A stretch of 64,000 bases of DNA from the NCBI GenBank assembly GCA_041694815.1, contig JBGFSC010000033.1:8148-72147 (forward strand), given 5' to 3'. Below, piece after piece: positions 7,331-64,000 of this stretch; positions within the stretch are counted from its first letter, which is position 1; each line of letters opens with the position of its first letter. Both the position numbers and the translations under genes were made by a program. The DNA is from Elusimicrobiota bacterium (lineage in GTDB: Bacteria > Elusimicrobiota > Elusimicrobia > UBA1565 > JACRDR01). The notes beneath the pieces were generated by a model. That model searched no databases, was not told the origin of the DNA, and saw only the letters and a program-made list of their open reading frames with translations.

Positions 7331-8680
7331 ATGGCCTTCTCTGACGTCGTCGTCCTGGGCGGCGGCTTCGCCGGCCTCGCCTGCGCGAGCGCGCTGGCCG
7401 AGCGCGGCGCGCGCGTGACCTTGCTCGAGAAGAAGCCCCATCTGGGCGGGCGCGCCTATTCCTTCAGGGAGCCCGGGACAGGCGCCGTCATCGACAACGG
7501 ACAGCATCTGTTCATGGGCTGCTACGGCGAGACGAAGGCCTTCCTGGGCCGCGTCGGCTCGGCTTCCTTGTTGCGTTTCTCCCGGGGGACTCGCGTCGAC
7601 TACCGCGACGGCATGGGCCGGCGCGACGCGCTGTCGTGCCCCGCGGCGCTGCCGGCGCCCTGGCATCTGGCCTTCGGCGTGCTCGGGCTCGCGGGGCTGT
7701 CCTTGCTCGACAAATGGAATCTCCGGAAGCTCAAGACCTTCTTCGATGAGGGCGGCAGGGACCGCTCCGCCGAGCTCGATGCCATGACGGCGCGGCAATG
7801 GTTGAGTTCCGTCGGCCAGTCGCCGCGGGCCCAAGAGAGGCTCTTTGACCCCATCGCCATCGGAGCCTTGAACGAGTCGCCGGAGCGCGCCTCGGCGCTG
7901 GGCCTGGCCCAGGTGCTCGAGCGCCTCTTCTTCCGCGACGCCGAGGATTCCCGGCTCGGCCTCGCGTCCGTTGGCCTAAGCGAGCTCTATACCGAGCAGG
8001 CGCGGCGATTCATCGAGTCCCGCGGCGGCCGCGTCGTGCTCGGCAAGAAGGCCGCCGCCTTGGAAAGCGAGGGCGGCAGGATTTCCGCGGTGAGAACCTT
8101 ATCCGGAGAGCGCATCGCGGCCGATGCGTTCGTCTCGACCCTGCCGCCGTGGGCATTGGACAAGCTCGAGCGGCCCCTTGAGCTTCACGGGGAGTGGTCG
8201 GGACTTAAGCCCTCGCCGATCATCGGCATTAATCTGTGGCTTGATCGGGCCGTGCTGGAGGAGCCCTTGATCGGGCTCCTGGGAACCTCGATCCATTGGA
8301 TTTTCAACAAGAACGCGCTCTGGGGGCTCCGCACGCAAGAGCAATATCTGTCGCTGGTCATCAGCGGAGCCCATGATTTCCTCGGCGCCCCGCCCGCCTC
8401 CTTGCTGGAATTGGCCAAGCGGGATCTGGAGCGCTGCTTGCCCGATTTTAAAAAAGCTAACATAAGCCGATGGTACGTGGTCAAGGAGCCCTTCGCGACG
8501 CTGTCTCCGGTTTGCGGCTCCGACCGGCTGCGGCCGCGCCACGAGTCGCCGCTGCCGAACTTTTTTTACGGCGGGGATTGGACGCAGACCGGGCTTCCGG
8601 CGACCATCGAGAGCGCGGTGCAAAGCGGCCACGCCTGCGCGCGGCTGATAGGGAGGGGAGTCCATGATCAAGTCCGATAA
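7331..8680 (+). CDS. hpnE: FAD-dependent hydroxysqualene dehydroxylase HpnE-like (amine-oxidase family)
   Basis: [40 protein letters not shown] dinucleotide-binding motif. Sits directly downstream of hpnD. Confidence 0.7.
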
Positions 8681-9233
8681 GTGGATACGGAAAATGTCGC
8701 TGCAGCATAAGATGATCGACCCCTTCGTTGAAAAGCTGCAGGCCAACGGCCAGATTTCCTACGGGCTCTCCTCGTATGGCTACGATATCCGCGTCACCGA
8801 CCAATTCAAGATCTTCACCAACGTGCTGGGGGCCGTCGTCGACCCCAAGAATTTCGACGAGAAGTCCTTCGTTGATTTCAGAGGCCCTTTCTGCATGGTC
8901 CCGCCCAACTCCTTCGCACTCGCCCACTCCTTCGAATATTTCCGCATCCCGCGCAACGTGCTAGGGATATGCATTGGCAAGAGCACCTACGCCCGGTGCG
9001 GCATCGTCGTCAACATTACCCCGTTGGAGGCCGAGTGGGAGGGGCACCTGACGATCGAGATATCCAACACGACGCCCCTGCCGGCCAAGATCTATTCGAA
9101 TGAAGGGATCGCGCAACTCATCTTCCTGGAGTCCGACGAGGTCTGCGAGACCTCGTATAAAGACCGCAAGGGCAAGTACCAGGCCCAGCAAGGCATCACC
9201 CTGCCGCGCATCCTGAGCGCTTCGGCGTCGTAA
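8664..9233 (+). CDS. dcd: dCTP deaminase
   Basis: [31 protein letters not shown] and [15 protein letters not shown] motifs. Confidence 0.85.
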
Positions 9234-9482
9234 AAAGCGGTAACTTTCGCCTGCAAACGCGGCTTCGGCCTGTTCCCCAGCGCCGCTACTTGAGGCGTAC
9301 CTTTTAGTAGCCGCGTTCGTCGCTCTTTGATTCGTCTCGAAATCCGTATTTTTGCGTTCGAACCGTGTTTTTGAACGGCTTCTAGAAAAATATCCACCTT
9401 ATTGCAAAAACCATTTATAACAATTGCGTTTTTTGCGCCAACTCCGTCTGAAAAGAGTTGGAGCGAAAAGACTTTATAGAAC

Positions 9483-10427
9483 ATGCGCTTTTTTACCCAA
9501 TGTGGATATTTTTCGAGTCGGGACGGAACTTATTCGTGGCTCGATCGTATATATAGTATGGCGATGATCGAGTTAGACGGCGAGCGATTGCTCGCCGAAT
9601 GCGACACGAAGAAAGATGCCGAACTGTTTGCCAGGCTGGAGCGCTTTCGAGGAGAAGAGTCCGAGTCGCTCGCGCAGACATTGGCATGTTTGGCGACGTT
9701 GGATAGACGCAAGGCGGCTGATGAGCTTGCGGACGGTTCTCTGTTTCTCTATTGCACTCGGAAACTCGGTTATTCCGAGGCAGAAGCCTATATGAGAATC
9801 CGGGTGGCGCGAGCCGCCAACGACTTTCCGCGGATTCTAACGATGATCGGTCGCGGGCAGATCCATGTCAGCGCGGTCGCCCGGATAGCGCCTTATCTGG
9901 ATTCCGAAAATTATAGGAGCCTGCTGGGCAAGGCCAGTCGGCGAAGCCGCGAGGAACTCGATCGGCTGATTGCGGAATTAGAGCCGCAGATAGAGAGGCG
10001 ACCGGTCATTCGCTCTCTATCCGTGGGGAATAATGCTCGCGCTCCGATTGTCACAGCGGAATCGCTCTTCGAACCGCCTTCGCCGCAGCTTCACTCTTCT
10101 TTCTCGCAGTCGGCATCGGGAAGGGAAAATAAAATCGAGATGAAGATCGAGCCCTGGCTGCCGACGGCCGTGCCTGATAACGCCGGCGCGTGTTCCGTTC
10201 GCCCGCCTGCCGGCCGGGTTTTATTTAGCTTCGTCGGCAGCGAGGCCTTTCGGGCTAAATACAAGCGGGCGAAGGAAATATTGCTTCATAAATATCCCGA
10301 TGGAAGTCCAGAGAAGATATTCGATGACGCGTTGGAAGCGCTGTTGGACAAAAAAGATCCTTGGCGCCGATTGGCGAGGAAAGAAAGGCGCCGGGCGATG
10401 GCAGGCTCTGAGGTGGATTCTTCATAG
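9483..10427 (+). CDS. DUF222-like (13E12-repeat) domain protein with no detectable HNH nuclease domain
   Basis: ARLERFRGEESESLAQTLACLATLDRRKAADELADGS...RIRVARAANDFPRILTMIGRGQIHVSAVARIAPYL resembles the N-terminal domain of DUF222/HNH proteins. AT-rich DNA on both sides. Confidence 0.4.
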   Translation: MRFFTQCGYFSSRDGTYSWLDRIYSMAMIELDGERLLAECDTKKDAELFARLERFRGEESESLAQTLACLATLDRRKAADELADGSLFLYCTRKLGYSEAEAYMRIRVARAANDFPRILTMIGRGQIHVSAVARIAPYLDSENYRSLLGKASRRSREELDRLIAELEPQIERRPVIRSLSVGNNARAPIVTAESLFEPPSPQLHSSFSQSASGRENKIEMKIEPWLPTAVPDNAGACSVRPPAGRVLFSFVGSEAFRAKYKRAKEILLHKYPDGSPEKIFDDALEALLDKKDPWRRLARKERRRAMAGSEVDSS

Positions 10428-49076: not shown

Positions 49077-49107
49077 AGCCTTAAATCCGTGTCAAGGGCC
49101 TAGGTCT

Positions 49108-49136
49108 TGACAGGCCAAGGGCATCTGCTATACTTC
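49108..49136 (+). promoter_or_regulatory. sigma70-like promoter (cttgaca - 16 nt - tatact)
   Basis: Near-consensus -35 at 49108-49114 and -10 at 49131-49136, directly upstream of the structured RNA. Confidence 0.5.
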
Positions 49137-49144
49137 GACTGTTG

Positions 49145-49238
49145 TACCGATAAACCGGCAAACCCTCCGCGAGGAGGGGGCGCAAAGCGTAGGGCCTGGA
49201 GGTCCAGGTCGCCTGGCTACCGAAGACAACAGTAGGTT
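49145..49238 (+). promoter_or_regulatory. candidate c-di-GMP-I (GEMM) riboswitch aptamer
   Basis: ggCAAACC-cuccGCGAggagg-GGCGCAAAGC-...-uggCUACCGaag matches the GEMM signature: GNRA-capped hairpin, CGCAAAGC junction, second hairpin, UACCG. Enclosing stem acuguugu/acaacagu. Confidence 0.5.
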
Positions 49239-49270
49239 CCGGGGTCGCGCAGCTGGAGTTCCCGTTTCCG

Positions 49271-49335
49271 CCCGGCCTTGACTGGCTATCTTCGGGATAG
49301 AGGGGTGAGATAGTCAGCGAGGCCGGGCCTTTTAT
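49271..49335 (+). terminator. intrinsic terminator / riboswitch expression platform
   Basis: Imperfect long hairpin cccggccttgactggctatc...gatagtcagcgaggccggg followed by cctttt. Confidence 0.45.
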
Positions 49336-49864
49336 GGGCAACGGGAGGCGCTTGAAAGGGAATATCGAGGCGGCTTGGGCGTACTGCGGATGGACCGCGT
49401 GGCTCGCGGTCTGGGGGTATTGCCTCCCCGCCCCCGCGTACGCCGAGCCGGCTCCGGTGGGGTTAGAGGCCCAAGGAGTCGATCCTTGGGCCGCTTTGCA
49501 TAGTCGCGACCTGGACGTGCGTGACGCCTTCAATCGCCCGGTATCCAGGCGCCTCATCGAGGGCCAAATCAAGGCGGCATCCTCCGGGGCCCGGGATTCG
49601 GTCTCATTTTTCTCCAGGCTTCCCAAGGCGCGCTCGGTGCTGGTCTCCTTGGAACGGATGCTGATAGCCAGCTGCGGCCTGGCGGCGCCCTCGCCATGGT
49701 CCGGTTTACGTATCGCCGTCACTTCCTGGCTGTGCCGCCCGTCGCCCAAGATCTCGGTGTTCTGGGCCTTCCTGAGTGTCGCCTCGGCTGCCGCTGCGTC
49801 GATTTCGCTGGTCGTCATGCAACCCCGCAAAATCGCCTCCCCCGCGCCGGTCCTGCGCTGTTAA
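49334..49864 (+). CDS. hypothetical ORF immediately downstream of the riboswitch terminator
   Basis: Only sizeable + strand ORF between the riboswitch and the HEAT gene. High GC3 fits coding. Hydrophobic N-terminal segment. No family recognised. Confidence 0.25.
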   Translation: MGNGRRLKGNIEAAWAYCGWTAWLAVWGYCLPAPAYAEPAPVGLEAQGVDPWAALHSRDLDVRDAFNRPVSRRLIEGQIKAASSGARDSVSFFSRLPKARSVLVSLERMLIASCGLAAPSPWSGLRIAVTSWLCRPSPKISVFWAFLSVASAAAASISLVVMQPRKIASPAPVLRC

Positions 49865-49963
49865 TTCCCGTAAAAGCCCCGTAACAAGTTCCCTGTACAG
49901 TTGTTGAAGTTTTGCCGCTCGAGCATTCGGTTTGACGTGGAAAACGAGGAGGAATTTTAAGCC

Positions 49964-50737
49964 ATGCCGTTTTACGCGCGCGCGCGCTTCTATAGCGTCC
50001 TGATGTGGATCGCCGGGCCGGCGCTTGGGGGTGATGTGCTCCAGAAAGAACTCGGCCGCATGTCCGACCGAAACCCCGCCGTTCGACGGCAGGCGGCCGC
50101 TCGGCTGGCTCATGCCGAAGGGCGCTCGGCTGCGGCGGCGCTCGAGTCCGCCCTGAAGGATTCCGACGCTTCCGTCCGCCGCGAGGCCGCGCTGGCCCTG
50201 GGCCTGCGCGGGTCTCTGGGGTCCGCCCAAGTCCTGATCTCCTGCCTCAAGGACCGGGACGCGCAGGTCCGCCAGGGCTGCATCCGGGCGCTGGGACTGA
50301 TCCGGGCACCCCAGGGGGTCGCACCGCTGTCTTCGGAGCTTAAGCGCGGGGACGCGCATGAGAAGGCGGCGGTCTTGGAAAGCCTGGGCCATATAGGCGG
50401 CCCCGAGGCTTTCGGCGCCGTCCGCGATGCCTTGAGCGCCTTGCGCGGGAACCGTCGCCGTGGAGCGCCTATCGATCAGCCCCTGATGCAGGAGGAAGAG
50501 GCGATCCGGGCCTTAGGCAGGCTGGGCCGACCCGAGGGAATCCCCTTGGCGAAAGAGGGACTGAGCTCTCCGGACGATCGCATCCGCGCGGTTTCCTGCT
50601 TGGCACTGGCTCGGATGGGCGACGGCTCCGAGCGCCTGCGCTGCGCGGCCCTTCTGTCTCATCCGGACCCGTTGGTCCTCAAGGATGCGGCCGAGGCCTT
50701 GAGCCGGATGGAAGCAAGGGAGAAGGCGCGGGAATAA
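49964..50737 (+). CDS. HEAT/PBS-lyase-like repeat protein
   Basis: Repeated D(S/A)xVRxxAxxALGxxG units (NPAVRRQAAARLAHAEG, DASVRREAALALGLRGS, DAQVRQGCIRALGLI, DDRIRAVSCLALARMGD). Stop lies 1 nt before the giant ORF start. Confidence 0.55.
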   Translation: MPFYARARFYSVLMWIAGPALGGDVLQKELGRMSDRNPAVRRQAAARLAHAEGRSAAAALESALKDSDASVRREAALALGLRGSLGSAQVLISCLKDRDAQVRQGCIRALGLIRAPQGVAPLSSELKRGDAHEKAAVLESLGHIGGPEAFGAVRDALSALRGNRRRGAPIDQPLMQEEEAIRALGRLGRPEGIPLAKEGLSSPDDRIRAVSCLALARMGDGSERLRCAALLSHPDPLVLKDAAEALSRMEAREKARE

Positions 50738-50738
50738 T

Positions 50739-53700
50739 ATGGCACGCCCTATCGCCCTGCTGGCCGGCCTTCTTCTGGCGCCAAGCTTTTGTTGGGCGGT
50801 CCCTCAGGATATCTCCGGCGGCATCTCCACCGCCGAACCGGGCTCGAGGAAGGTATTCTATCACGAATCCTATGATCGGACATGGGTGTTCTACCAGAAC
50901 AGCTTAAGCAAGTTCGCCTACCAGTCCTACGACGGGGTCAACTGGACGGCAGACACCCAGGTTTTTCCGGCGGCGGATGTTTCCGCGGCCGGCTGCACCG
51001 GAACCCCGGGCCCCGTGGGTAGCATCTGGTATGTCGCTTCCTCCACCCGCGTTTATGCCATTGCTGGGGAGGATTCCGCGAACGAAACCAACGACAATAC
51101 CAACGCCAACTATCCCAACAAGGTCTATTTGCGCCGCGGAGACTTAAATTCGGATGGGACGATCACCTGGGGCAGCGTGGCTTGCCGGGCCCGAGACATC
51201 ACCTTTGACGGCGGATTGGGGGATTATCTGGCGGGGATGTCCGTGTCCATCGCGGTTCCCGAGGATGAAACCGCAAACGGCGGCAACAACCTCATGTGGG
51301 TGGCTCATTTTAGGCGCAGGACCACCGTTTTCCGCCAGGCCCCAGCCGGACAGAACCAAATCACGGCGGCGACTCTGGGCGGCGGAGTGGATTTGCAAGA
51401 CGGCCACGCCCTTCAAGAAGCCAGCAACGCCAATGGCTTTGAGAGCGTGGTGCCTATCAACGATGCCGGGACCTGGAAATTCTTGGTAGGCAATAATGAT
51501 CGTTCCGATCAATCGGATCCGATCGTAGACCGTTTTGTAGTCAGCGCCGCGGCCCGGGAGCTTGGCGGAGAACTCGACCCTACCGGTCCCGGGATCAACA
51601 ACAACGCCTACTCCGTCTCCTTGGCTCCCGAGGGGGCCTCCTCCATTGTCCATGCGGCCTATGTCGACAGCAGCGGCCGTATCGCGTATCAAAGGCGCAC
51701 AGGCGCGGGGACCTGGGCCGCGGCGATCGTGGTGGATGCTTGCGCGGCGGTCAATAGCTCTCCGTGCAAAAATCCGTCCGTGGCTTATGTGCCAGACCCC
51801 GCGACCTTTAATAGGGTGTATATCGTATATCTTTCCAGCTACGGCGCCGTCAATTATGCCGTAGGCCCGGCCACCGCCACGGCAGCCGGAGAATTCACCG
51901 TCATCCAAGGCTGGCAGTCGAGCGGATCGAATCCGATCGTTCCGGTTAAAAGCACGGCCCCGGCGCCGCTGGCGGTCGTTTGGAACGACGCCTCCCCACA
52001 AGCCAAGATCGACTTTATCATCACCTCCGGATACGCGTCCCCGACTGTCAGCTCGGTGGCCGAAAGCCCCGGCAAGGCCTGGTTAAGCTCCAACAAATTC
52101 GATCTGTTGATAACGGGGTCCAACTTCCTGGATCTGGGAGGCACGAAGAAGCCAAAGGTCAAGCTGTTGGAGAATGGAGCGGATCAATCCGCTATCACGG
52201 TCACTTCCACCACCTTCGTCAATGCCAGCACTCTTCGGGCTTCCATCGTCCTGATCGCGCCGACGACCTCCTATGACGTGAGGGTTATCAATCCCGACGC
52301 GAAGTTTACCGTGTTTCAGGACACGGTGACCATTTCGTCTCCCACCCTGAGCTCTCTGACGGATGCAGACGGGAACATTCTTTCCGGAGGTATTTTCCCC
52401 AACAATAACGGTACGACCGCCATGACGCGGGATGTGACGGTCAACGGTTCTAACTTTCAGAACTGGGGCTCCAGCGTTCCCAAGGTCTCCGTCGTTTCAG
52501 GGATTTCCTTATATGCCATTACGGGCCTTAGCAGCAACTCGTTTGTCGCAAGACTCAAGATTTCAACGACGACGGTTGCCGGCACCTATGCCCTCACGGT
52601 TCAGAATCCGGACAATCAATCCGTGACCCAGTCCTCCACCTTTACGGTGACCCGGCCCTCGGCCACTATCAACTATCCCATCGAAGGCAACGGCCTGCTG
52701 GGCGGATTTACCACGGGCTTTGCCACCCTCAACGGGGTGGCAGACTATGATACCACGGGGGACGGCCTGGGGGATTCGGTCGCCGGGATCACTCAAAATA
52801 CATCGGATATACGCATCGTCTCCCTTGGAGGCGCCGGTTGTCCTGCAAACGGCTATCTCTGGAACGGAAGCGGATTCGCCGCGCCCGGGAGCTTCGCGGA
52901 TCAGGAGCAGGAGTGGCAGGCGGCCAGCGCCCCGAGCCCGTGGGCGTACTCCACCCTCAATATGAATCTATTCCAAGCGGTCGATACCGAAGGGTGTCCC
53001 TTCCGGCTGGAATCCCGGGGAAGGAGCTCCGATGGGGGGCGAAGCATGGCTTCCGGAGCCGGAATCGTCACCCTGACCATGGACCGCAAAAGGCCGGTGA
53101 TCGATGTCACCTCTCCACCGGGCGGCCAGATCATCAATACGGCCGATAATATTTTCATGGTTTTCAGCGATGTCTCCGGAGTCAAGAAAGTGGAATTCAC
53201 GCTCCAGGCGGATACCGAAACGGCCCGTTACTGGACCGGATCCTCCTGGACGGCGAACGAGATGTGGCTTTCCACCCCGGCCAGTCCCCAGATGCAGTTC
53301 AACCCTCCCACCGCCAGCAACAATGTCACCATCAGGACGATAACGGACGATCTCAAGCGCCCGGCCTGGGTGGATGGATGGAAATATCGGATCAAGGCCA
53401 GGGCCACCGACCGGTTGGAGCAATTGGGTTATGCTCCCGGCGGGGCGTCTGCCCCCACCGAAACGGTGTTCTTCTACGACGTTTCGGCTCCTACGGTGAC
53501 CTTGGAGTCTCAATGGCTGAACGTCTCCACATGCACCGTGGCCTCCGGTTGCGCTACCAGCTGGAAAAGGTCCGTCCCGTCGATCGGCGGCGGCATTTCC
53601 GACAATGTTTCGATCCTGGAGGCGATCCACAACCCCAACGTCAAATTAAGGATTTTCGACATCACCGCCACCAACCTTTACCTGGACACCGGCACCTTGA

Positions 53701-56700
53701 GCTTCACCAACATCGCGGCGGGCAACGCCTGGTTCGACGCCAAGAAAAGCGGAGGCCATGCCAATTGCAGCGTCAACGGCAGCGCCGGAACCTGGAATTG
53801 CAGCTTCAGCGCGGTGCCTGTCGGCGGCTCCTGCGGGGCGCAGGGAGGGCCCGGCTGCGGCTGGCAGAATGGCCGAGAATACCGCATCGAGGTCTACGGG
53901 TTAGACGGGGCCGGCAACTCGACCGGCACGGCGGCCAGCCCGCTGTTTACACGCTATTTCAAATTCGACGCGGACAATCCCACGATCACGATCGACTATC
54001 CGATCGAGGGCGGTCTCTACGGGCTCAACGGGACCAACGACCCGCGCGGAAGCTCGGGCGATTCCACCAGCGGCGTCGACTATGTCGAATACCGACTGGA
54101 GTATCCGGGCTCGGGCGGCCTCACCAAATGGACCAAGGGCGTGACCGGATCCTGTTCGGGCGGAGCCAAGGGCCCCAACGACTGGTGCGACCAGACCGCC
54201 GCGATCTGGAACATCGCCGGCACGACCACGACAGTCCCTTATGCCGTCTGGCACGCCTCCGAGGCCACCAACGCCGGCAAATGGGTCAACGGCGAGCAAT
54301 ACGCACTGATCGCGCGCGTCGTCGACAAGGCCGGCAATTTCTCGGTGACTTACGCCACCGTCACCTTCAAGCTCGACTCCTCCTCGCCCGTCGCCTCGGT
54401 GAGCTTTCCGGGCGCCTCCACCTTCTTTAGCGCCCAAATCGGAGGCGTCAATGGGTTCGTCCAGGATTATCCGTTGACCACGCGGCAAAGCGGAATCGAT
54501 CTCATGAAAATCGGCATCCAGCGCTTGGGCGACGGCTTCTGGTGGAATGGGGCCTCCGGCTGGCAGGCGACCCGCAATGACCCGGCCCAAGCAGTGGTTC
54601 AGGGCAGCCCCGGGGAAAACACGGCTTGGAGCCACGCGAACTTCGGAGGGTTCTGGAGCAATATCACCTGGAGCAGCGAGACCTTCCGCGTCTATGCCTG
54701 GGCGCAGGACAAGGTGGATCAGCCGAGCTCCGCCTACCGCAATGTGGAGTCGTCCCAGACCTTGGATCAGACCTTCTATTATGACGTCATGTCCCCGACT
54801 TCCTCGGTCATCGCCCCGATCAACAATCAATGGTACAGCGCCGTCTCCGGCTACGACCTCTCTTATATATTGGGCACCGCCACGGATCGTCCGGCCTCGG
54901 GGCCGGGCTCGGGAAACACCATCTTCCGGGCCTACGCGGAGATCCGCTATCCTGACGACGGCGATGCCAACAAATGTTGGGGCGGCACGGCTTTCGACAA
55001 GCAATGCTATCAGGACGGAGGCGCCACCTGCGGCTCGGCCGCCTCCAGCTGGCAAGAAATGACGATCTCGGGCAGCTCCTGGACCTTTCCGGTCCAAGCC
55101 GGAGGAGGGGCTTTATGGACCGCCATGACGGACGGCAAGACCTATCAGGTCCGGGTCTGCTCGCTCGACAACGCCGCCGACAGCACGGGCGCATCGAATT
55201 TCAGCAGCCGGAACAAAGAAACGAACTTCACGAGCAACGTCAACGAGAAAAGCCTGCGCGTCGACAAGTCCGGCCCGAGCTCGCTGATCCAATCCCCGAA
55301 CCAGGCGGAGGTCTCGATCCTGACGACGATCAGCGGGACCGCCAGCGACGGCAATAGCGGGATATTCCATGTCCGGGTGGCGTATTACGGCGAGACGGAA
55401 GCCAATTGGTGGAACCCCGTCACCCGGGCCTTCGACCTGGGGGGCGCCTCCTCCAATCCGCCGGATTCCGCTTTCATCGCCGCCTCCACGCAGACGTTAA
55501 ACCCTGTTCCTTGGGAGGTCAGCGGAGCTTCCATTCCCGCCATGGTCAACGGCCAATTCTACCGCATCTTCGCCGCGGGCCAGGACCAGGTCTCGAATAC
55601 GACCACCTTCCCCGGACATGGGAGCTACACGAATCCGCCGACCCAATCTTCCTTTATAAGGATCAAGCGCGTCGCCGCCGCCCCGACCTCGGCCATCAAT
55701 GTTCCCGGAGCCGGAGAGCCCCATTACAAGCCCAGCGGCGGACAGTCGCTGACCTCGATCTCCGGCTCGCTCGCCGACGCCACCACCCTGCAGATCCGCC
55801 TGACGAACGTGAGCGCCGAACCGGATCAGGTATGGACTGGGGCCTCCTGGGTGTCCACCGTCACGTATCTGGCCGGCTGCACGAACACGACCTATGTCGT
55901 CGGGCAGTCCACCTGCGGTTTCATCGGCGCCGACAATACGACATGGTCGGAAAGCGTCAGCGCACTGCCTTGGCCCGCGGGAACCAACCGCATCCAATGC
56001 GAGGCGCGGGCGGCCACGGAAAGCCCGCTGGTCGTGCAGAACGAGCCCTTCCCCTCGCGGCTCTTCGTTATCGACGGCGATAATCCCAACAATACCCTGA
56101 CCGAACCTAACGCGGCCTATGAGAGATGGCTCTCGACGATCACCGGCATCGCTACGGACATCGGCTTGGGCGTCATCTCGAACGTGGAAATCGCCCTCTC
56201 GACCGCCAGCCAGTCCAGTTATTGGAACGGCTCCGGCTCCTGGGTGGTAGGGCCGGCGATATGGCTGGGCGCGACGGCAAATTCTCCGCCCTTCGATTCC
56301 AATAACGAAGCCTGGTCGCGTTCCTCGGGCCTGCCGGCGTTCGAGAACAACAAGACCTACGAGATCCAGGTCCGCCTGACGGAGAAATCAGGACGGACAT
56401 TCCTGTTCCCGCAACCAGGGCCGACCTTCAATTTCACGATCGATACGGCCTCCCCGACCGCGCGCATCCTCGCCCCGGTCGTCAACTCGGGCATCCGCAG
56501 CCTGCCGCAATTATGGGGCACCGCGGCCGATAACGGCCAGAACCAGAGCGTGCAGATCGCGATCCAGAAGCTTTCGGCGACCCCGCTCTGGTACGACGGC
56601 GCGGACTTCCTGGTGCCCGGTTCCAATCCCAACTGGATCTTCATCCAAAACGGTATCAACGGCTTTTTGTCCGCGGACGCGACGAGCTGGACCTACGCCC

Positions 56701-59700
56701 CGGCGGGTGTCGACGGGGATTTCACCGGGGGTTTCGAATATCTGGTGCTGACGCGCTCGACGGATGTGGCCGGCAATATCCAGGATACCTTCGCCGCGGA
56801 CGTTTCCTCGCGCGTGATCCGCATCGACAAGAGGGCGCCGGAGTCCTACGGATCGTTTCCGGTCGACGATGGCGACGGCGCCAGCGGGCGTTATCGTTCA
56901 TCGCTGGTCGGGCAGACGGGGAATTCGACCCATATTCGAGGTACGGCCCAGGACCCGGCCGAGGGGAGCACCCCGTCCGCCGGCGTATTCGCGACACAGC
57001 TCCGTCTCTCGTATTTGAGCGGAGGGACCTCGTACTATTGGACCGGGACCACGTTCAGCTCCTGGACGGTGACGCAGAATTCCGCCTGGAACAGCGCCCT
57101 GGTGACCGGCAGCGCCCCCACTTGGAATTGGGATTACCTCGTCAATATCGACTTCAACGAGGTCGACGGGGCCGCGCAGCCCGCCGTCGACCGCGAGTAC
57201 CGGCTCGAGATGCGCTCCGAGGACGCCTCCCGACTGGCCGACGGAAGCGGGGCCGGCAATGTCGAAACGCCATCCAATCCGCCGGCCGACACCCTCCATT
57301 TCATCGTCGACGATTCGACCCCGGCCGTGCTTATCACCACGCCTTCGGCCGCGGCGCTGGGCTCCTTGAGCGAGATCTCAGGCACGGCCGCCGCCGCCCT
57401 TTCGGGCCATCGAAGGACGGAACTCAAGATTTCGACGGGCACCGGGGCTAGCACCCGCTACTGGACCGGTTCTACGTGGACCGCCAACGAGCATTGGATC
57501 ACGACCGCGAGGCTTGGCCAGAGCTCCTGGACCTACACCGTGCCGGCCAACCTATTCGACGGCGATCTTCCGCTGACCGAATACACGTTCATCGCGCGTA
57601 CTCTCGATTACGCGGGCAACTATTCCTCGCTGTACTCGACCAAGACCCTGGTCCATGACGACGTCGCTCCCTATGCGGCCGTCGGATTTCCCATCTCGGG
57701 AGGCTTCTACAACGCCGCCGGGATCGTGACGAGCTCTGGCAGCGTCTCGGACAGCGCCGCCGGGAATACGGGAATCACCGATGTTCGGATCGTTTTAAAA
57801 CGCGTCGACCCGCCGGTCGGATATTGGAAACAATCGGATAATACCTTTCCGCCCGGCATCCAGCGATCGACGGTCAATATTTTCACTAGCTCGTGGACCG
57901 TCGCGATGCCTGCGCTATTTAGCAACGTCAGCTACCGTATGTGGGTGGAGGCCACCGACGGCGCGGGGAACATCTACTGGGCCAACGCGAACGCCTCGCA
58001 GGCCGCGGCCGACACGGACATCGGCAATAATGTCGGGGGGGTGCCCTTCCTCTACGATAACGATGTCCCGCTATCGGTCACGACCTCTCCCGCCAACAAC
58101 GCCTTAATCCGCTCGCAGCTCTCGGCAATCGCCGGAACGAGCATCGACGGCCTGGGCTCCTCGGGACTGTCGACCTCCGCCGGAGACCAGTTCCGCTTCC
58201 GCCTGCTGCGCAGCTCCGGCCCCCCGGGAAATTACCAATATTGGCAGGGAGGGGCTTCTTGGGGCAGCGTGGCCGATTTCTTCATCACCCCCGTTGAGAT
58301 TGACGCCGCGAACAAGAAATTTTCGTGGATCCAGGCACTTCCCGCCGGGGCCTTCCTGGATGACGGGCGCGAATATAAAACCCGGATCCGCGCCCGGGAC
58401 CAGGCCAACAATACGGAATCGGAGAAGGAATACCGCTTCATCTTCGACAGCTCCGTACCGGACAGCAAGATTACCTCCCCCGCGCACGATTCCTTTATCA
58501 ATGCCACCGCCTTCACGATCTCCGGCACGGCCGATGATCGCATCAATTACGGCCAGGGGCAGGATTTCGAGGCCGGTTTGGCCGTCAACGGGGCCTCCGT
58601 GGCCGTGCAGCGATTGAGCGACAATCAATGGTGGAGCGGTACCGCTTTCAATCAAAGCTCCCCTTTCTGGAGTTCCGCTACCTTTGTCGGCGCTTCCTCG
58701 GGGACCTTCAGCTACGCGATCACCCTCACGGCCGATACCAGCTATTACGTGGTCGCCAGGGCATTGGACCTGGCGGGCAATCTCGAAACGGATCTAAGCA
58801 CCAACACCTTCACCGTCGACCTCCAGAACCCCACCTCCCGGTCGACCTCTCCGACCGGGACGCTCAACCAAATGACGGCCATCTACGGCACGGCGAGCGA
58901 CCTGCTGCCGGGCCAGCTCGACGGGATTCTCCTTAACATCGTCCAGACGGCCGGGACTGGCTCGCCTCAGACCTGGACGGACACGGGCTGGACGGCGGGG
59001 GACTCGAGCATCTGGGTGGGCACCGGCACGATCGGCGCGCTCATCACCGGAACCACCTACGCCTGGAGCTTCTCCGGCAGCACGATCGCCTGGCTCGCCG
59101 ATTCCAGCTATAAGGTAAGCACCCGCGCCCGGGACAAGGCCGGCAATTACCGCCCGATTCCCGGCAGTCCGGATATCACCTTCTCGCTCGCCGGGCCCTT
59201 ATCCGGCATCACCACTCCGAGCAACGGCGCCCCGCATTTCAAGTCGGCGGCCCTGACCTCGATACTGGGCACGGCGATCAATTCCTCGACCGCCGCCGTG
59301 CGCCTGACCCAGGCCGGCCCGGACCATGCCTTCGCGGTGGGCAACGACGATCTGGCCTGGCATAGCGGCTTGGGCTGGGTGTCGACCAACACCTTCAACG
59401 GCTACATCGGCGTGACCAGCTACAACGGCGCCCCCGACCCGGACACCTGGAGCTATTCCTTCTTGGCCGCCAACTGGCAGAACAATCGCAAGTACAAGGC
59501 CGAGTCCATAGGCCGCACCCTATCGCCCGCCGTGGACCAGAGCGTGTTCACGGGAGCGGAGACCCGCGAGTTCATCATCGACGATTCCGCGCCTTCGGCG
59601 GCCGTCACCCTGCCCAGCGCGCTCTATTACCGAGCCGGGCAATTGCCGAATTTCACCGGCACGATCACGGATACGGTCCCCGGAGCGGCCAATTCGGCCA

Positions 59701-62700
59701 GCGTGCGCTTTAGGCTCTTGCGCATGAAGGATAGCTACGAGTGGAACGGTTCGACCTTCGCGGCCTCCGGCATCGACCTCGTCCCGACCGATCAGGGCGG
59801 GGGCAATTACAGCTTCGCCAACTCCACCGGCGACGCGGTGTTCGAGGACGGCCTTCTCTACAAGGTGCGCATCACCGCCCAGGACCTGGCGACGAACCAG
59901 ACGGTGGTCGAGCAGCCCTCTCCCAACGGGTTCCGCTTCGACGTGTCCAAGCCCACGGCGACGATCAGCGTCCCCAAGGCAGGGTATGTCATCAATAGCC
60001 TGCCGCAGCTCAGCGGCACGGCGGCCGATTTCATGTCCGGTTCGGGCAATTATCAGGGCTCCGGGGTGTCCGGCGTGAATGTCTACCTGCAGAACCTGGC
60101 CAACGGCAGCTATTTCAACGGCTCGGGCTTTTTGAGCGCGACGCCGGTGCCCTTGGCGGCCTCCTTCTACGCGCCGAGCGGCACCTGGACCTATACCTCG
60201 GGATCGCTGGAGTCCTCGCTGACCGACGGGCTCTACAGCCTCTACGTCGAGGCCGCCGATAACGCGGGCAATGTCCAGGTGAATTTCACCGCCAACAACT
60301 CCTCGAGGACCTTCGCCATCGACAAGACGGCGCCGAGTAGGGCCATCACGACTCCCGTGTCCCAGGCCTATACCCCCGCGGCGATATTTTCCGCCAATGT
60401 CACGGGCACGAACACCGATTCCGTGGTCAACAGCACGGCGGCCGGGGCGGATTTCGTCGAATTGCAATTGTGGTATGTCGTCGGGGTCAGCAGCTATTAC
60501 TGGAGCGGCTCCTGGAGCACGACGATCAGCACGCTGCAGGCCTCCGGCGCCTCCTGGAGCCTTCTGGCCCAGCAGCCGCCTCAGACCGGAGCCAACAGTT
60601 GGGCCCGCGGCGCCGACGCGGTGGATACCGAGCGGCGCTATTACGTTCGAGTGCGGGCGCATGACAAATCCACCCTCGGAGACGGTTCGGTGAGTCCTTC
60701 TACGGGTAATGTAAGCAGCTGGAGCTCGCCGCTGGGATTCATCGTCGACCCGATCCTGCCTGTCTCCTCGGTGACGACGCCTTCCAACGGCAGCTTCGCC
60801 AGCGCCCTGCCCTCGATCTCGGGCACGGCCGACGGGGGGCTTTCGGGTCTCGGTTCCCCCGGCGGGGTGGTGGTCCGCATCACGACCAACCCGAGCACCG
60901 GCCCGGACTGGAACGGAAGCGCGTATTCGTTCACGGGGGTGCCGATATTCCGTTCCGTGACGGTCACGGGCAACAGCTGGTCGTATCCGGGATCTACGGG
61001 AGACAATTTGACGGGGGCCTTCCAGGACCATAACGTCTACTACGTCTATTCGAAGGCCACCGACGGCGCCGGAAATCCCGAGTCAGGCATGTTCGTTTCC
61101 ACCGTCACCATCGACGCCTCGGCGCCGAGCTTGTCGATCAGCCATCCGAGCACTCCGCCGAACCCGCCCTTCTATTCGAACAACACCGAATCGACGCGCA
61201 AGAGCACCTATACCTGGGGCGCAATTTCGGACCCCGCTCCCGTGCCTTCCGGCGTCACGCAGGTCTGGGTGGCGATTGCCTCCGGCTCCTCGCTCAATGT
61301 TTGGTGGAGCACGACGACCAACAGCTTCAGCGTCAATCAAACCGCCGTCCACTGGTCGACGCAGGTATACGTGCCCGGCGCCGCGCGCTGGGAATATTAT
61401 CCGCCCTGGACGCTTTCGGACCAGATCAGCTACAAGGTCTTCGTCCGGGCCAGCGATGGGGCAGGCAACTGGACGGGCAACATCGTCAATCCCGGCGATG
61501 CCGGAGAGCTCTCGCAGCAGTTCAAGTACGACATACTCCGCCCCACGGGCACGGTGAGCGGTCCGGCCAACGGGAGCAACGTCAAATCCTTGGCCGCCTT
61601 CTCGGGCAGCGCGGCCGACCCCGGCGGCAGCGCGGGCTCGGGCATCCAGATCGTCTATGCCGGCGTGAAGAAGACCTCGGTGATCCCGAACGAATGGTGG
61701 AACTGGGGCACGAAGCAATTCGATTCCGGGCTCAGCGATCCTCCGGCCCTCTCCCCTTTAAGCGCGGCCTGGACCCAGGTGGCGACCACCAGCGCCCAAG
61801 GCTTCAATTCCGTCGGCTGGTCGACGCCGGTGCCGGTGAATATGCTGGTGAGCTCCAACACCTACCAGGTGGTGGTGGCGGCCGTGGACTGGGCGACGAA
61901 TCGCCCGCCGGACGCTGAGCCGACGCTCTCGGGAGCCGGCGCGAATTTCCGCTACGACACCCAGGCCCCGGTGGTGGCGGCCACCTTTCCGGTCAGCGGG
62001 CTGGCCTATAACGCGGCGAGCCTGACTCCTCTCGCCGGCACGGCGGCGGACAACACGACGGGCAATTCCGGAGTGCAGAGCGTCCAGATCTTGCTTAAGA
62101 ACAGCGTGACCAACTCCTATTGGAGCGGCAGCGGCAATATCTTCGATGCCCCGCCTTCCGGCTATTCCAATTGGGTAACGATGAGCGGCAAGGAAACCTG
62201 GAGCCGCTCCTGGCCGTCGCTCGACAGCAACGTCAAATACATCCTGTGGGTGCGGGGCAGCGATAACGCTGTCAACATCTCGACCTACCCGGCCTACCCG
62301 GCCGATCAGGGCCGGCTCGACGCCAACCAGAACATCGACGGCAGCGTGGCGATCAACTTCATCTACGACACCGACCCGCCGGTGTCCAAGATGACCTCGC
62401 CCCAGCCGGGGGCCTATATCCAGAACCCGGCCGTTTTGGCGACCGTCTCCGGCACGGCCTATTCAGACGTCGCCAACGTTTCGGGAGCCTCCTATGTCGA
62501 CCAGGTGCGGCTCAATCTGTATTGCTCGGGCTGCGCGGCGGGCGATGTGCCGGGCTGGTGGACGGGAGGCGGTTGGAGCACGACGCAGCCCGATCCGCCG
62601 CAATTCGCCGCCTCCGGACCGCCTGGCAGCCCCTCGGTCAACTGGAGCTTTAGCTTCTCGAACAGTTGGGCTGAGGGCTACCAGTACATCGTCTACTCCC

Positions 62701-64000
62701 GCGCCCGGGATTTCGCCACGAACCTGGAGTCGCCCCAGGCCCAGGGCGGCTTCATCGTGGACCTGAGCACTCCTTCGGCGAGCCTCGTCTCTCCCGCCAA
62801 TAATGTCTTCTACGTGAGCGTCAGCTCGGTCACGGGGTCGGCCGACGACCGCTTCTGCACCTTCAACCCGGCTTTGTGCGTCGTCAACAACCGCGACAAG
62901 CAGGCCGGCATCGCCGGCTCCAGCGTCACCGTGGTGATCCAGCGCCTGAGCGACTACAAATACTGGAGCGGTACCGCCTTCGACTCCACCGTGCCCGTCT
63001 GGTCCTCGGCCAATTTCGTCGGGATGTCCAGCGGAACCTGGAGCTACTCGATCAACCCGAGCTTCCTGGTCGACGGATCGAGCTTCGCGGTGACGGCGCG
63101 GGCCAAGGACCAGGCGGGCAATCTGCAGCTTTCCTATAGCACGAATGTCTTCACCATCGACTCGCAAGCCCCGACTTCGATGGCTACGGCGCCGGCTACG
63201 ACGGTCGATGTGATGACTCCCATCTACGGCACGGCCAGCGACCCCGCCATCGGAGTGCTCGATGGCGTGCTGCTCAACATCGTGCAAACGGTGGGCAACG
63301 GCTCGCCTCAGACCTGGACGGACACGGGCTGGGTCGCCGGGAACTCGAGCATCTGGGTGGGCACCGGCACGATCGGCGCGCTCATCACCGGAACCACCTA
63401 CGCCTGGAGCTTCTCCGGCAGCACGATTACCTGGCTGTCGAACTCCACCTATCAGATCAAGACCCGCGCCCGGGACAAGGCCGGAAATTACCGTCCCGTT
63501 CCCGGCAGCGCGGACCTGAGCTTCTCCATCTCCGGCCCGCTTTCGGGCATCACCACTCCGAGCAACGGCGCCCCGCATTTCAAGTCGGCGGCCCTGACCT
63601 CGATACTGGGCACGGCGATCAATTCCTCGACCGCCGCCGTGCGCCTGACCCAGGCCGGCCCGGACCATGCCTTCGCGGTGGGCAACGACGATCTGGCCTG
63701 GCATAGCGGCTTGGGCTGGGTGTCGACCAACACCTTCAACGGCTACATCGGCGTGACCAGCTACAACGGCGCCCCCGACCCGGACACCTGGAGCTATTCC
63801 TTCTTGGCCGCCAACTGGCAGAACAATCGCAAGTACAAGGCCGAGTCCATAGGCCGCACCCTATCGCCCGCCGTGGACCAGAGCGTGTTCACGGGAGCGG
63901 AGACCCGCGAGTTCATCATCGACGATTCCGCGCCTTCGGCGGCCGTCACCCTGCCCAGCGCGCTCTATTACCGAGCCGGGCAATTGCCGAATTTCACCGG
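50739..64000 (+). CDS. giant secreted Ig-like-repeat surface protein (adhesin-like), partial; at least 4,420 codons with no stop before the window end
   Basis: SP MARPIALLAGLLLAPSFCWA. Continuous reading frame from 50739 to 64000, which the ORF track misses because there is no in-window stop. Dozens of roughly 100-aa repeats carry YW(S/T)G(S/T)xW and (A/T)xDxAGN strand motifs typical of bacterial Ig-like domains. All overlapping track ORFs are in other frames. Confidence 0.8.
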   Translation, partial: MARPIALLAGLLLAPSFCWAVPQDISGGISTAEPGSRKVFYHESYDRTWVFYQNSLSKFAYQSYDGVNWTADTQVFPAADVSAAGCTGTPGPVGSIWYVASSTRVYAIAGEDSANETNDNTNANYPNKVYLRRGDLNSDGTITWGSVACRARDITFDGGLGDYLAGMSVSIAVPEDETANGGNNLMWVAHFRRRTTVFRQAPAGQNQITAATLGGGVDLQDGHALQEASNANGFESVVPINDAGTWKFLVGNNDRSDQSDPIVDRFVVSAAARELGGELDPTGPGINNNAYSVSLAPEGASSIVHAAYVDSSGRIAYQRRTGAGTWAAAIVVDACAAVNSSPCKNPSVAYVPDPATFNRVYIVYLSSYGAVNYAVGPATATAAGEFTVIQGWQSSGSNPIVPVKSTAPAPLAVVWNDASPQAKIDFIITSGYASPTVSSVAESPGKAWLSSNKFDLLITGSNFLDLGGTKKPKVKLLENGADQSAITVTSTTFVNASTLRASIVLIAPTTSYDVRVINPDAKFTVFQDTVTISSPTLSSLTDADGNILSGGIFPNNNGTTAMTRDVTVNGSNFQNWGSSVPKVSVVSGISLYAITGLSSNSFVARLKISTTTVAGTYALTVQNPDNQSVTQSSTFTVTRPSATINYPIEGNGLLGGFTTGFATLNGVADYDTTGDGLGDSVAGITQNTSDIRIVSLGGAGCPANGYLWNGSGFAAPGSFADQEQEWQAASAPSPWAYSTLNMNLFQAVDTEGCPFRLESRGRSSDGGRSMASGAGIVTLTMDRKRPVIDVTSPPGGQIINTADNIFMVFSDVSGVKKVEFTLQADTETARYWTGSSWTANEMWLSTPASPQMQFNPPTASNNVTIRTITDDLKRPAWVDGWKYRIKARATDRLEQLGYAPGGASAPTETVFFYDVSAPTVTLESQWLNVSTCTVASGCATSWKRSVPSIGGGISDNVSILEAIHNPNVKLRIFDITATNLYLDTGTLSFTNIAAGNAWFDAKKSGGHANCSVNGSAGTWNCSFSAVPVGGSCGAQGGPGCGWQNGREYRIEVYGLDGAGNSTGTAASPLFTRYFKFDADNPTITIDYPIEGGLYGLNGTNDPRGSSGDSTSGVDYVEYRLEYPGSGGLTKWTKGVTGSCSGGAKGPNDWCDQTAAIWNIAGTTTTVPYAVWHASEATNAGKWVNGEQYALIARVVDKAGNFSVTYATVTFKLDSSSPVASVSFPGASTFFSAQIGGVNGFVQDYPLTTRQSGIDLMKIGIQRLGDGFWWNGASGWQATRNDPAQAVVQGSPGENTAWSHANFGGFWSNITWSSETFRVYAWAQDKVDQPSSAYRNVESSQTLDQTFYYDVMSPTSSVIAPINNQWYSAVSGYDLSYILGTATDRPASGPGSGNTIFRAYAEIRYPDDGDANKCWGGTAFDKQCYQDGGATCGSAASSWQEMTISGSSWTFPVQAGGGALWTAMTDGKTYQVRVCSLDNAADSTGASNFSSRNKETNFTSNVNEKSLRVDKSGPSSLIQSPNQAEVSILTTISGTASDGNSGIFHVRVAYYGETEANWWNPVTRAFDLGGASSNPPDSAFIAASTQTLNPVPWEVSGASIPAMVNGQFYRIFAAGQDQVSNTTTFPGHGSYTNPPTQSSFIRIKRVAAAPTSAINVPGAGEPHYKPSGGQSLTSISGSLADATTLQIRLTNVSAEPDQVWTGASWVSTVTYLAGCTNTTYVVGQSTCGFIGADNTTWSESVSALPWPAGTNRIQCEARAATESPLVVQNEPFPSRLFVIDGDNPNNTLTEPNAAYERWLSTITGIATDIGLGVISNVEIALSTASQSSYWNGSGSWVVGPAIWLGATANSPPFDSNNEAWSRSSGLPAFENNKTYEIQVRLTEKSGRTFLFPQPGPTFNFTIDTASPTARILAPVVNSGIRSLPQLWGTAADNGQNQSVQIAIQKLSATPLWYDGADFLVPGSNPNWIFIQNGINGFLSADATSWTYAPAGVDGDFTGGFEYLVLTRSTDVAGNIQDTFAADVSSRVIRIDKRAPESYGSFPVDDGDGASGRYRSSLVGQTGNSTHIRGTAQDPAEGSTPSAGVFATQLRLSYLSGGTSYYWTGTTFSSWTVTQNSAWNSALVTGSAPTWNWDYLVNIDFNEVDGAAQPAVDREYRLEMRSEDASRLADGSGAGNVETPSNPPADTLHFIVDDSTPAVLITTPSAAALGSLSEISGTAAAALSGHRRTELKISTGTGASTRYWTGSTWTANEHWITTARLGQSSWTYTVPANLFDGDLPLTEYTFIARTLDYAGNYSSLYSTKTLVHDDVAPYAAVGFPISGGFYNAAGIVTSSGSVSDSAAGNTGITDVRIVLKRVDPPVGYWKQSDNTFPPGIQRSTVNIFTSSWTVAMPALFSNVSYRMWVEATDGAGNIYWANANASQAAADTDIGNNVGGVPFLYDNDVPLSVTTSPANNALIRSQLSAIAGTSIDGLGSSGLSTSAGDQFRFRLLRSSGPPGNYQYWQGGASWGSVADFFITPVEIDAANKKFSWIQALPAGAFLDDGREYKTRIRARDQANNTESEKEYRFIFDSSVPDSKITSPAHDSFINATAFTISGTADDRINYGQGQDFEAGLAVNGASVAVQRLSDNQWWSGTAFNQSSPFWSSATFVGASSGTFSYAITLTADTSYYVVARALDLAGNLETDLSTNTFTVDLQNPTSRSTSPTGTLNQMTAIYGTASDLLPGQLDGILLNIVQTAGTGSPQTWTDTGWTAGDSSIWVGTGTIGALITGTTYAWSFSGSTIAWLADSSYKVSTRARDKAGNYRPIPGSPDITFSLAGPLSGITTPSNGAPHFKSAALTSILGTAINSSTAAVRLTQAGPDHAFAVGNDDLAWHSGLGWVSTNTFNGYIGVTSYNGAPDPDTWSYSFLAANWQNNRKYKAESIGRTLSPAVDQSVFTGAETREFIIDDSAPSAAVTLPSALYYRAGQLPNFTGTITDTVPGAANSASVRFRLLRMKDSYEWNGSTFAASGIDLVPTDQGGGNYSFANSTGDAVFEDGLLYKVRITAQDLATNQTVVEQPSPNGFRFDVSKPTATISVPKAGYVINSLPQLSGTAADFMSGSGNYQGSGVSGVNVYLQNLANGSYFNGSGFLSATPVPLAASFYAPSGTWTYTSGSLESSLTDGLYSLYVEAADNAGNVQVNFTANNSSRTFAIDKTAPSRAITTPVSQAYTPAAIFSANVTGTNTDSVVNSTAAGADFVELQLWYVVGVSSYYWSGSWSTTISTLQASGASWSLLAQQPPQTGANSWARGADAVDTERRYYVRVRAHDKSTLGDGSVSPSTGNVSSWSSPLGFIVDPILPVSSVTTPSNGSFASALPSISGTADGGLSGLGSPGGVVVRITTNPSTGPDWNGSAYSFTGVPIFRSVTVTGNSWSYPGSTGDNLTGAFQDHNVYYVYSKATDGAGNPESGMFVSTVTIDASAPSLSISHPSTPPNPPFYSNNTESTRKSTYTWGAISDPAPVPSGVTQVWVAIASGSSLNVWWSTTTNSFSVNQTAVHWSTQVYVPGAARWEYYPPWTLSDQISYKVFVRASDGAGNWTGNIVNPGDAGELSQQFKYDILRPTGTVSGPANGSNVKSLAAFSGSAADPGGSAGSGIQIVYAGVKKTSVIPNEWWNWGTKQFDSGLSDPPALSPLSAAWTQVATTSAQGFNSVGWSTPVPVNMLVSSNTYQVVVAAVDWATNRPPDAEPTLSGAGANFRYDTQAPVVAATFPVSGLAYNAASLTPLAGTAADNTTGNSGVQSVQILLKNSVTNSYWSGSGNIFDAPPSGYSNWVTMSGKETWSRSWPSLDSNVKYILWVRGSDNAVNISTYPAYPADQGRLDANQNIDGSVAINFIYDTDPPVSKMTSPQPGAYIQNPAVLATVSGTAYSDVANVSGASYVDQVRLNLYCSGCAAGDVPGWWTGGGWSTTQPDPPQFAASGPPGSPSVNWSFSFSNSWAEGYQYIVYSRARDFATNLESPQAQGGFIVDLSTPSASLVSPANNVFYVSVSSVTGSADDRFCTFNPALCVVNNRDKQAGIAGSSVTVVIQRLSDYKYWSGTAFDSTVPVWSSANFVGMSSGTWSYSINPSFLVDGSSFAVTARAKDQAGNLQLSYSTNVFTIDSQAPTSMATAPATTVDVMTPIYGTASDPAIGVLDGVLLNIVQTVGNGSPQTWTDTGWVAGNSSIWVGTGTIGALITGTTYAWSFSGSTITWLSNSTYQIKTRARDKAGNYRPVPGSADLSFSISGPLSGITTPSNGAPHFKSAALTSILGTAINSSTAAVRLTQAGPDHAFAVGNDDLAWHSGLGWVSTNTFNGYIGVTSYNGAPDPDTWSYSFLAANWQNNRKYKAESIGRTLSPAVDQSVFTGAETREFIIDDSAPSAAVTLPSALYYRAGQLPNFT
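59205..59659 (+). repeat. intragenic exact repeat, copy 1 (inside the giant ORF)
   Basis: Identical at nucleotide level to 63547-64000. The preceding roughly 260 bp (58947-59204 against 63291-63546) are about 90% identical. Confidence 0.75.
63547..64000 (+). repeat. intragenic exact repeat, copy 2 (truncated by window end)
   Basis: Copy of 59205-59659, offset 4,341 bp, which is not a multiple of 3 by my count. The offset may be off by 1-2 nt. Confidence 0.75.

Follow-up and report, generated by a model that had tools for sequence, protein, structure and literature searches.

In the structure of the Vibrio cholerae riboswitch Vc2, a class I riboswitch for cyclic di-GMP (c-di-GMP; class c-di-GMP-I or GEMM-I, Rfam family RF01051), G20 pairs with one guanine of the ligand and C92 with the other, and the backbone of A47 touches the ligand (PMC6140456, PMC5888326). 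Relatives that sense cyclic GMP-AMP (cGAMP) carry an A at position 20 (PMC6140456). In the OFF switch Cd1 of Clostridioides difficile, an intrinsic terminator stands apart from the aptamer, 3' of it, and the two structures can coexist, unlike in the ON layout of pilM (PMC9262584), and in Bc1 of Bacillus thuringiensis a c-di-GMP-I aptamer is joined to a conserved, elaborate and long platform that affects transcription as well as translation (PMC11218506). Here, we describe a leader that combines a c-di-GMP-I aptamer with a 59-nucleotide (nt) hairpin upstream of three genes, on the plus strand of a 64,000-nt stretch of DNA from an Elusimicrobiota bacterium (contig JBGFSC010000033.1, positions 8,148 to 72,147; hereafter the window, in whose numbering its coordinates are given).

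The likeness to Vc2 extends to the layout of the paired elements P1, P1b and P3, a P1b capped by a GNRA loop, the junctions GGCAAACC and CGCAAAGC and the equivalents of G20, A47 and C92, whereas the P3 of the window is short and lacks the 11-nt GAAA tetraloop receptor of the RF01051 consensus, the loop is GCGA and the lineage is Elusimicrobiota. The c-di-GMP-I-GGC variant (RF03167) has a similar overall shape and a short P3, and several orthologous leaders exceed its gathering score, but it has G at the A47 position, where all 36 homologous leaders have A. The arrangement of an aptamer and a separate, coexisting putative terminator is that of Cd1, from which the Elusimicrobiota leaders differ in two respects: the antiterminator of Cd1 was mapped experimentally, whereas none has covariation support in these leaders, and their putative terminator has a fixed form, 59 nt with an invariant loop, and is also found in aptamer-less copies. 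Bc1 in turn has two terminators and unrelated platform sequences, and no stand-alone copies of its platform are reported. The riboswitch itself is ordinary, as it belongs to an already known class; its unusual features are the 59-nt module, which is reusable and carries an invariant loop, and a cargo that is strictly conserved and wholly uncharacterised. No paper linking Elusimicrobiota with c-di-GMP riboswitches was found in a literature search.

Taken as a whole, the explanation that we put forward with good confidence is the following. RNA from the promoter at 49107–49134 would start with the class I aptamer at 49147–49224, which would govern an operon encoding a small exported or membrane protein with a VLRC end, a HEAT-repeat protein and a giant surface protein. 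Control would be exerted through the hairpin and U-run at 49270–49333 as an intrinsic terminator, acting at 49329–49333, and in the window the hairpin would also bury a GAGG upstream of the first ATG (49334). Binding of c-di-GMP would close the aptamer, the terminator would form and the operon would be off, which is the most likely direction; in the unbound state, the 5' half of the terminator would be captured by sequences of the aptamer or the spacer, and transcription would continue into the genes.

A Class I c-di-GMP Aptamer

By Rfam model and covariation, 49147–49224 (+) is a genuine class I c-di-GMP riboswitch aptamer. The original prediction, made from the sequence alone, had proposed a GEMM-I aptamer at this place and named a search with RF01051 and a comparison of homologous leaders as its checks, and both bear it out. 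RF01051 matches 49147–49224 with 56.9 bits against a gathering score of 35 (E 1.8e-8, model positions 1–87 of 87), and this is the sole match above a gathering score of any Rfam family in the window. Relatives were collected in a genome scan with an alignment of the small protein encoded by the first gene, which yielded 35 species-level loci, almost all of them labelled as Elusimicrobia or Elusimicrobiota metagenome-assembled genomes. A match to a model of the GEMM clan above its gathering score lies on the same strand just upstream of the small gene in 35 of the 35 loci, and RF01051 scores of the orthologous leaders range from 48 to 61 bits.

The hallmarks of the class, namely GGCAAACC, GGCGCAAAGC, the P3 hairpin and CUACCGAA, are all found in the aptamer, as are the junction CGCAAAGC and the tail ACCGAA. 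P1b is formed by CCCUCC and GGAGGG (49163–49168 with 49173–49178) under a GCGA cap (49169–49172), a GNRA loop that is GAAA, GCAA, GUGA or GGAA in relatives. The GNRA-capped hairpin, the CGCAAAGC junction and the 3' tail had all been pointed out before, with coordinates accurate to within a base or two. P3 is short, and the columns of the RF01051 model that hold the 11-nt tetraloop receptor are deleted in the window. A receptor-less P3 is common among accepted c-di-GMP-I members, so that this is not disqualifying.

In the alignment of 36 leaders, pairing amounts to 99.5% for P1b, which has four compensatory pairs, and to 89.8% for P3, which has six; slid controls reach 37–48%. The paired elements are thus kept in homologous leaders with compensatory changes. 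P1 is less uniform. Its 5' strand ACUGUUGU (49138–49145, +; conserved core GUUGU at 49141–49145) pairs with its 3' strand ACAACAGU (49226–49233, +) in the minimum-free-energy fold, and the fold of 49135–49345 contains P1, the GCGA-capped P1b, P3 and the long hairpin (z = -3.28 against shuffles). The closing stem of 8 bp that the original prediction had drawn therefore pairs in the fold, but conservation in relatives is confined to its inner 5 bp, GUUGU with ACAAC. The four inner pairs form in about 75–80% of the 36 sequences, with some compensatory change, and the outer three pairs lie at or 5' of the likely transcription start near 49141.

Ligand Contacts and Related Aptamer Families

The equivalents of the three contact nucleotides are G 49157 (G20), A 49184 (A47) and C 49220 (C92). 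A47 and C92 are invariant in the 36 leaders, and position 20 is G in 35 of 36 and A in none. This standard set of G, A and C contacts makes c-di-GMP the expected ligand, and the aptamer most likely senses it, as judged from these positions. In one leader (L033, 2669–2771) the G20 position is occupied by C (CGCAAACC), which could be a variant of altered specificity or an assembly error.

It is very improbable that the aptamer recognises another ligand, either 3'3'-cGAMP or the unknown ligand of c-di-GMP-I-GGC, although RF03167 matches invite the thought. RF03167 is the best model of the clan in seven of the 35 genome loci and scores some orthologous leaders, including L001–L003, at 61–65 bits against its gathering score of 59; it also tops the clan in L001–L003, and in a short search ranked by E-value it came out ahead of RF01051 for the window itself. 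The window, however, scores 53.9 bits, under the RF03167 gathering score. All 36 leaders read CGC-A-AAGC (CGCAAAGC) where the RF03167 consensus has CGC-G-AAGC, and G at the A47 position is what we take to be the hallmark of the GGC variant (from its name and the Rfam consensus CGCGAAgC); A is found there in every sequence. The RF03167 matches of the orthologs are best explained by the shared short P3 without the 11-nt tetraloop receptor. The cGAMP type (GEMM-Ib) is marked by A20, and the window has G 49157 in place of the A typical of cGAMP riboswitches (PMC6140456).

The 59-nt Hairpin as Probable Expression Platform

The aptamer is followed by a spacer (49234–49269, +), which contains UUCCGGGGUCGCG and is able to pair with the 5' strand of the hairpin, by the hairpin itself (49270–49328, +; -38.8 kcal/mol) and, directly 3' of it, by C and a run of UUUU (49329–49333, +). 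A long hairpin with a U-tract had been noticed here before, and it resolves into these 59 nt followed by CUUUU. With the covariance model R1 built for the hairpin, the window yields a single match, this copy, at 89.5 bits, and no Rfam family matched the hairpin. Its outer stem, GCCCGGCC with GGCCGGGC, is invariant, its inner stem covaries, and its 14-nt loop (49293–49306, CGGGAUAGAGGGGU) has the invariant consensus CGGGAYAGAGGGGU. Thirty of 36 leaders have a hairpin of exactly 59 nt, and the stem is 95.9% paired, with nine compensatory pairs, against 31–52% in slid controls.

The position of the hairpin relative to the first gene varies. About 21 loci have an in-frame ATG 5–8 nt past the aptamer, with an open reading frame (ORF) that runs uninterrupted across the hairpin; about 10, among them the window, have the hairpin in the 5' untranslated region and in a different frame; and four loci lack the hairpin and have their ATG 11 nt past the aptamer. 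Since the frame relation differs between lineages, conservation acts at the level of the RNA, and the patterns of pairing and length mark the hairpin as a conserved RNA module rather than a generic terminator. Its best-supported readout is that, together with the U-run, it would behave as an intrinsic terminator, and termination is what we infer from its shape and from the U residues that follow.

An effect chiefly on translation, in which the hairpin would bury GAGG (49316–49319) and abut the ATG at 49334, is unlikely in our judgement; in most relatives, where the ORF reads through the hairpin, ribosome access would then be coupled to formation of the hairpin. The ATG lies one base past the U-run, the GAGG in the 3' strand of the stem is the only sequence resembling a Shine-Dalgarno there, and the approximately 21 loci with a frame open through the hairpin would fit such coupling. 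The differing frames or untranslated state of the hairpin across lineages speak instead for RNA-level conservation, the U-run is conserved although translational control does not need one, and the alternative start TTG at 49352 has its own GGGAGG outside the hairpin. No obvious Shine-Dalgarno sequence precedes the in-frame ATG of the relatives (L008, 2863–2962, and some 20 further loci), and in these loci the hairpin, when read through, encodes an Arg-rich N-terminal stretch of a signal peptide. Translation and termination might be coupled in loci of the L008 type.

Direction of Switching

Preference for an OFF switch, which we hold with some reservation, starts from the layout. Aptamer and putative terminator are separate and coexist in the minimum-free-energy fold, which is the Cd1 OFF layout and unlike the pilM ON layout (PMC9262584), and the coexistence makes it most likely that bound c-di-GMP switches the operon off. 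Two further findings count for this direction. In the four hairpin-less loci, the Shine-Dalgarno GAAGGG lies within the 3' tail of the aptamer and the ATG directly after P1. In many of the leaders with an in-frame ATG, the base of the terminator is complementary to the aptamer core, with a mean of 2.9 predicted pairs against 0.85 in shuffles. The original prediction had called the adhesin cargo classically c-di-GMP-regulated, a wording that implies induction; the architecture looks more like that of an OFF switch.

Several results weigh against the explanation given above. The pairing of the core with the terminator base is not predicted for the window (0.59 pairs against 1.39 in shuffles), and a strict covariation scan of 44 leaders supports P1b, P3 and the stem of the hairpin only, with no antiterminator helix. 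The proposal that the UUUC flank and the terminator base are kept for pairing with the aptamer core is weakened, as the aptamer-less hairpins conserve the UUUC flank too. The U-run comprises only four U in the window, compared with 5–7 in relatives. A simple terminator scan did not report the hairpin, probably because its rules allow loops of 3–8 nt only and the loop has 14 nt. When the transcript is truncated before the 3' strand of the hairpin, its predicted fold joins the spacer to the 5' strand and keeps the aptamer intact. Finally, we know of no precedent for expecting c-di-GMP to repress a surface protein here.

A lesser but real chance is given to an ON switch, in which c-di-GMP would close P1 and free the spacer (49238–49252) to pair with the 5' strand of the hairpin, so that the operon is expressed, and in which, without ligand, the 3' tail of the aptamer would hold the spacer and the terminator would form. 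The folded aptamer coexists with the pairing of spacer and hairpin 5' strand in the truncated transcript of the window, the UUC(C)GG of the spacer is able to pair with the CCGAA tail, as read from the sequence, and the former pairing would also fit a four-strand ON design. ON switches of the same class are known ahead of adhesin genes, Bc2 and cap among them (PMC4933901). Against this direction, the spacer is not conserved between subgroups and no helix involving it covaries, a self-contained terminator 36–45 nt from the aptamer is the OFF-type layout (PMC9262584), and the hairpin-less leaders put the Shine-Dalgarno inside the aptamer. The spacer sequence UUCCGGGGUCGCG is a candidate antiterminator in the subgroup of the window, as suggested by the folding predictions; its pairing has no support from covariation.

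Hairpin Copies Without an Aptamer

A metagenome scan for the loop and the 3' stem gave 70 sites, of which 47 follow a GEMM core and 13 are true hairpins without an aptamer; the rest are three sites too near a contig end to judge and about seven chance matches. The 13 aptamer-less units (L048, L052, L057, L072–L075, L088, L090, L094, L097, L103 and L108) have the same type of promoter, a short leader, the 59-nt hairpin and a U-run, and with R1 their stand-alone hairpins score 83–98 bits, as high as the aptamer-linked copies. Three of them (L075, L088 and L103) lie directly after purA, with the upstream synteny seen in the window. The next gene encodes a nucleotide cyclase with a CHASE2 domain in L075 (8017–10074) and L088 (2194–4356, minus strand), and the gene downstream of L103 had no Pfam match in the frame tested. 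A class III nucleotide cyclase with a CHASE2 sensor is also found downstream of L048 (3171–5285, minus strand). In L057, L097 and L108, a convergent gene ends 10–17 nt past the unit, so that there is nothing to regulate in cis.

These copies bear on a reading that we entertain tentatively. In it, the hairpin would not primarily be the platform of this riboswitch but the core of a separate, conserved RNA of Elusimicrobiota, a small RNA with a target-pairing loop or a protein-binding site, to whose 5' side the aptamer was added by fusion; the choice between release of a short RNA of aptamer and hairpin and read-through into the operon would then lie with c-di-GMP. A related and similarly doubtful proposal sees in the hairpin a self-standing RNA element (a small RNA, or a terminator module that binds a protein or the ribosome) with its own conserved promoter. 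According to it, most lineages would have inserted the aptamer between promoter and hairpin at the locus downstream of purA, and other lineages would use the module without aptamer, in isolation or before genes for CHASE2 nucleotide cyclases. The 13 metagenomic loci with promoter, short leader, hairpin and U-run, the three among them without a downstream gene in cis and the equal R1 scores all favour independence, as does the invariance of the loop while the stem covaries. One unit (L094) resembles a leader from which the aptamer core has been deleted, with GUUGGAGCGAUAACC joined to AGAUUUCGCC, and it is counted on the same side.

Against independence, no pairing partner of the loop that is consistent across loci was found in the 5' strand of P1b, the tip of P3, the spacer or a C-rich motif downstream. 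This motif follows the stop codon of the small gene in most loci (CCAACCCCCC in many; AGCCCCGUAAC in the window, 49865–49963) and fits the loop of the leader hairpin (AGAGGGGUU) at eight of nine positions, but it is also present in loci that lack the hairpin. Several of the stand-alone copies, moreover, precede genes on the same strand, as a plain cis-acting attenuator would. A small covarying hairpin is often found 3' of the C-rich motif (for example, L017, 2996–3060, and L027, 3421–3480).

Listeria SreA/SreB and EutX/Rli55 are riboswitch-terminated transcripts that act as small RNAs. Their likeness to the present leader would be that a riboswitch decides the release of a short structured RNA, which in the present case would contain the conserved hairpin known from stand-alone units as well; this is an analogy only, as action in trans is hypothetical here. 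Should the invariant loop prove to be a binding site or a seed, the hairpin would represent a new RNA family and possibly a hybrid of riboswitch and small RNA. An expression platform can be a fixed, reusable RNA module, with or without a sensor, which bears on how riboswitches are assembled in evolution.

A Conserved Operon 3' of purA

The module of promoter, riboswitch, small protein, HEAT protein and giant protein, 3' of purA, is conserved across Elusimicrobiota. purA lies upstream in 24 of the 35 loci, with 62–77% identity, a result that assigns the window to this phylum, and the N-terminal domain of the giant protein was found downstream by tblastn in 26 of 35; the gene between the small gene and the giant homolog encodes a HEAT-repeat protein in nine of 10 other loci tested. 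A search of genomes by means of the HEAT protein found no relatives, as HEAT repeats diverge too fast for such a search. The riboswitch thereby ties c-di-GMP signalling in Elusimicrobiota, which are known mostly from metagenomes, to one strictly conserved operon, and it offers a functional lead for three uncharacterised proteins, namely the small VLRC protein, its HEAT partner and the giant surface protein of more than 4,400 amino acids (aa). In L001–L003, minus-strand tRNA matches (7450–7521, 8310–8383, 9214–9286 and 9805–9944) lie inside called plus-strand genes, between the HEAT gene and the homolog of the giant protein. Those gene calls are probably spurious, and a tRNA cluster probably interrupts the operon there.

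The original prediction had named a HEAT-repeat gene and a giant ORF as the next genes, and both are real, but the first gene is an ORF that it had overlooked (49334–49864, +), which lies in the approximately 630 nt between the hairpin and the HEAT gene. Called by homology, with TTG 49352 as an alternative start, it encodes a protein of 176 aa from an uncharacterised family. An exhaustive HMMER search gave 70 cluster representatives of this family, nearly all of 160–185 aa and many aligning end to end, and no Pfam or NCBIfam model covers it. The alignment shows a signal peptide, a block VGLEAQGVDPWAAL..LDVRD..RPVS..SRLP and a variable tail with a near-invariant ...VLRC end; all 30 aligned sequences have LRC at the C-terminus (LLC in one). 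The protein has an N-terminal signal peptide or transmembrane helix and a C-terminal hydrophobic helix. An AlphaFold model (mean predicted local distance difference test score, pLDDT, 78.6; predicted template modelling score, pTM, 0.44) consists of an N-terminal helix, a small domain, a helical hairpin and the C-terminal hydrophobic helix, and a fold search of the model against the PDB returned nothing below E = 5. The VLRC-tailed family was found almost only in Elusimicrobiota. The codons for V, L and R of this end vary synonymously, which argues for selection at the protein level. The Cys codon is TGT in 30 of 31 loci despite a GC content at third codon positions (GC3) of about 0.8, which suggests that the U preceding the stop codon is under an additional constraint.

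Two other gene models were set aside. A minus-strand ORF (49081–49830) was rejected, as homology favours the plus-strand ORF 49334–49864; GC3 and codon usage were unable to separate the two, which share the same codon phase. The notion that the 176-aa ORF and the HEAT gene are one disrupted gene was likewise rejected. They share a frame, and between them lie three stop codons and 100 nt that are richer in AT, but the HEAT gene has its own strong Shine-Dalgarno (GAGGAGG at 49946–49952), and relatives have two genes.

The second gene (49964–50737, +) encodes a HEAT-repeat protein of 257 aa (Pfam HEAT_2, E 4e-30). The third (50739–64000, +) starts with ATG at 50739, is still open at the end of the window and encodes a secreted, repeat-rich giant protein of 4,420 aa or more whose N-terminus resembles a signal peptide (MARPIALLAGLLLAPSFCWA). 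It matches Big_13, Big_3_2 and CoaZ repeats, and its N-terminal domain of about 650 aa is conserved in relatives; a sequence search of the N-terminus against the PDB found nothing.

Promoter and Upstream Inverted Repeat

The sigma-70-type promoter (49107–49134, +) consists of the -35 hexamer TTGACA (49107–49112), a spacer of 16 nt and the -10 hexamer TATACT (49129–49134), preceded by an extended -10 TG. With 11 of 12 consensus positions it is the near-consensus promoter that had been noted before, and one site of this quality was found in the 1-kb region, compared with 0.2 expected from shuffles. The promoter is conserved and lies 12 nt upstream of the aptamer; the 36 homologous leaders, and the aptamer-less units for the most part, show GG(T/C)CTTGACA and then a -10-like hexamer, usually TATACT. 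Transcription likely starts near 49141, a position deduced from the -10 element.

The -35 hexamer is also part of the right arm of an inverted repeat, TGTCAAGGGC-CTA-GGTCTTGACA (49090–49112, +). The corresponding palindrome, TGTCAAGRCC-N3-GGYCTTGACA, has arms that agree at 8 or more of 10 positions in 17 of the 36 homologous leaders, with a near-universal spacer of 3 nt among these 17. The repeat could be the operator of a dimeric regulator or form an RNA hairpin in the 3'-terminal part of the purA transcript.

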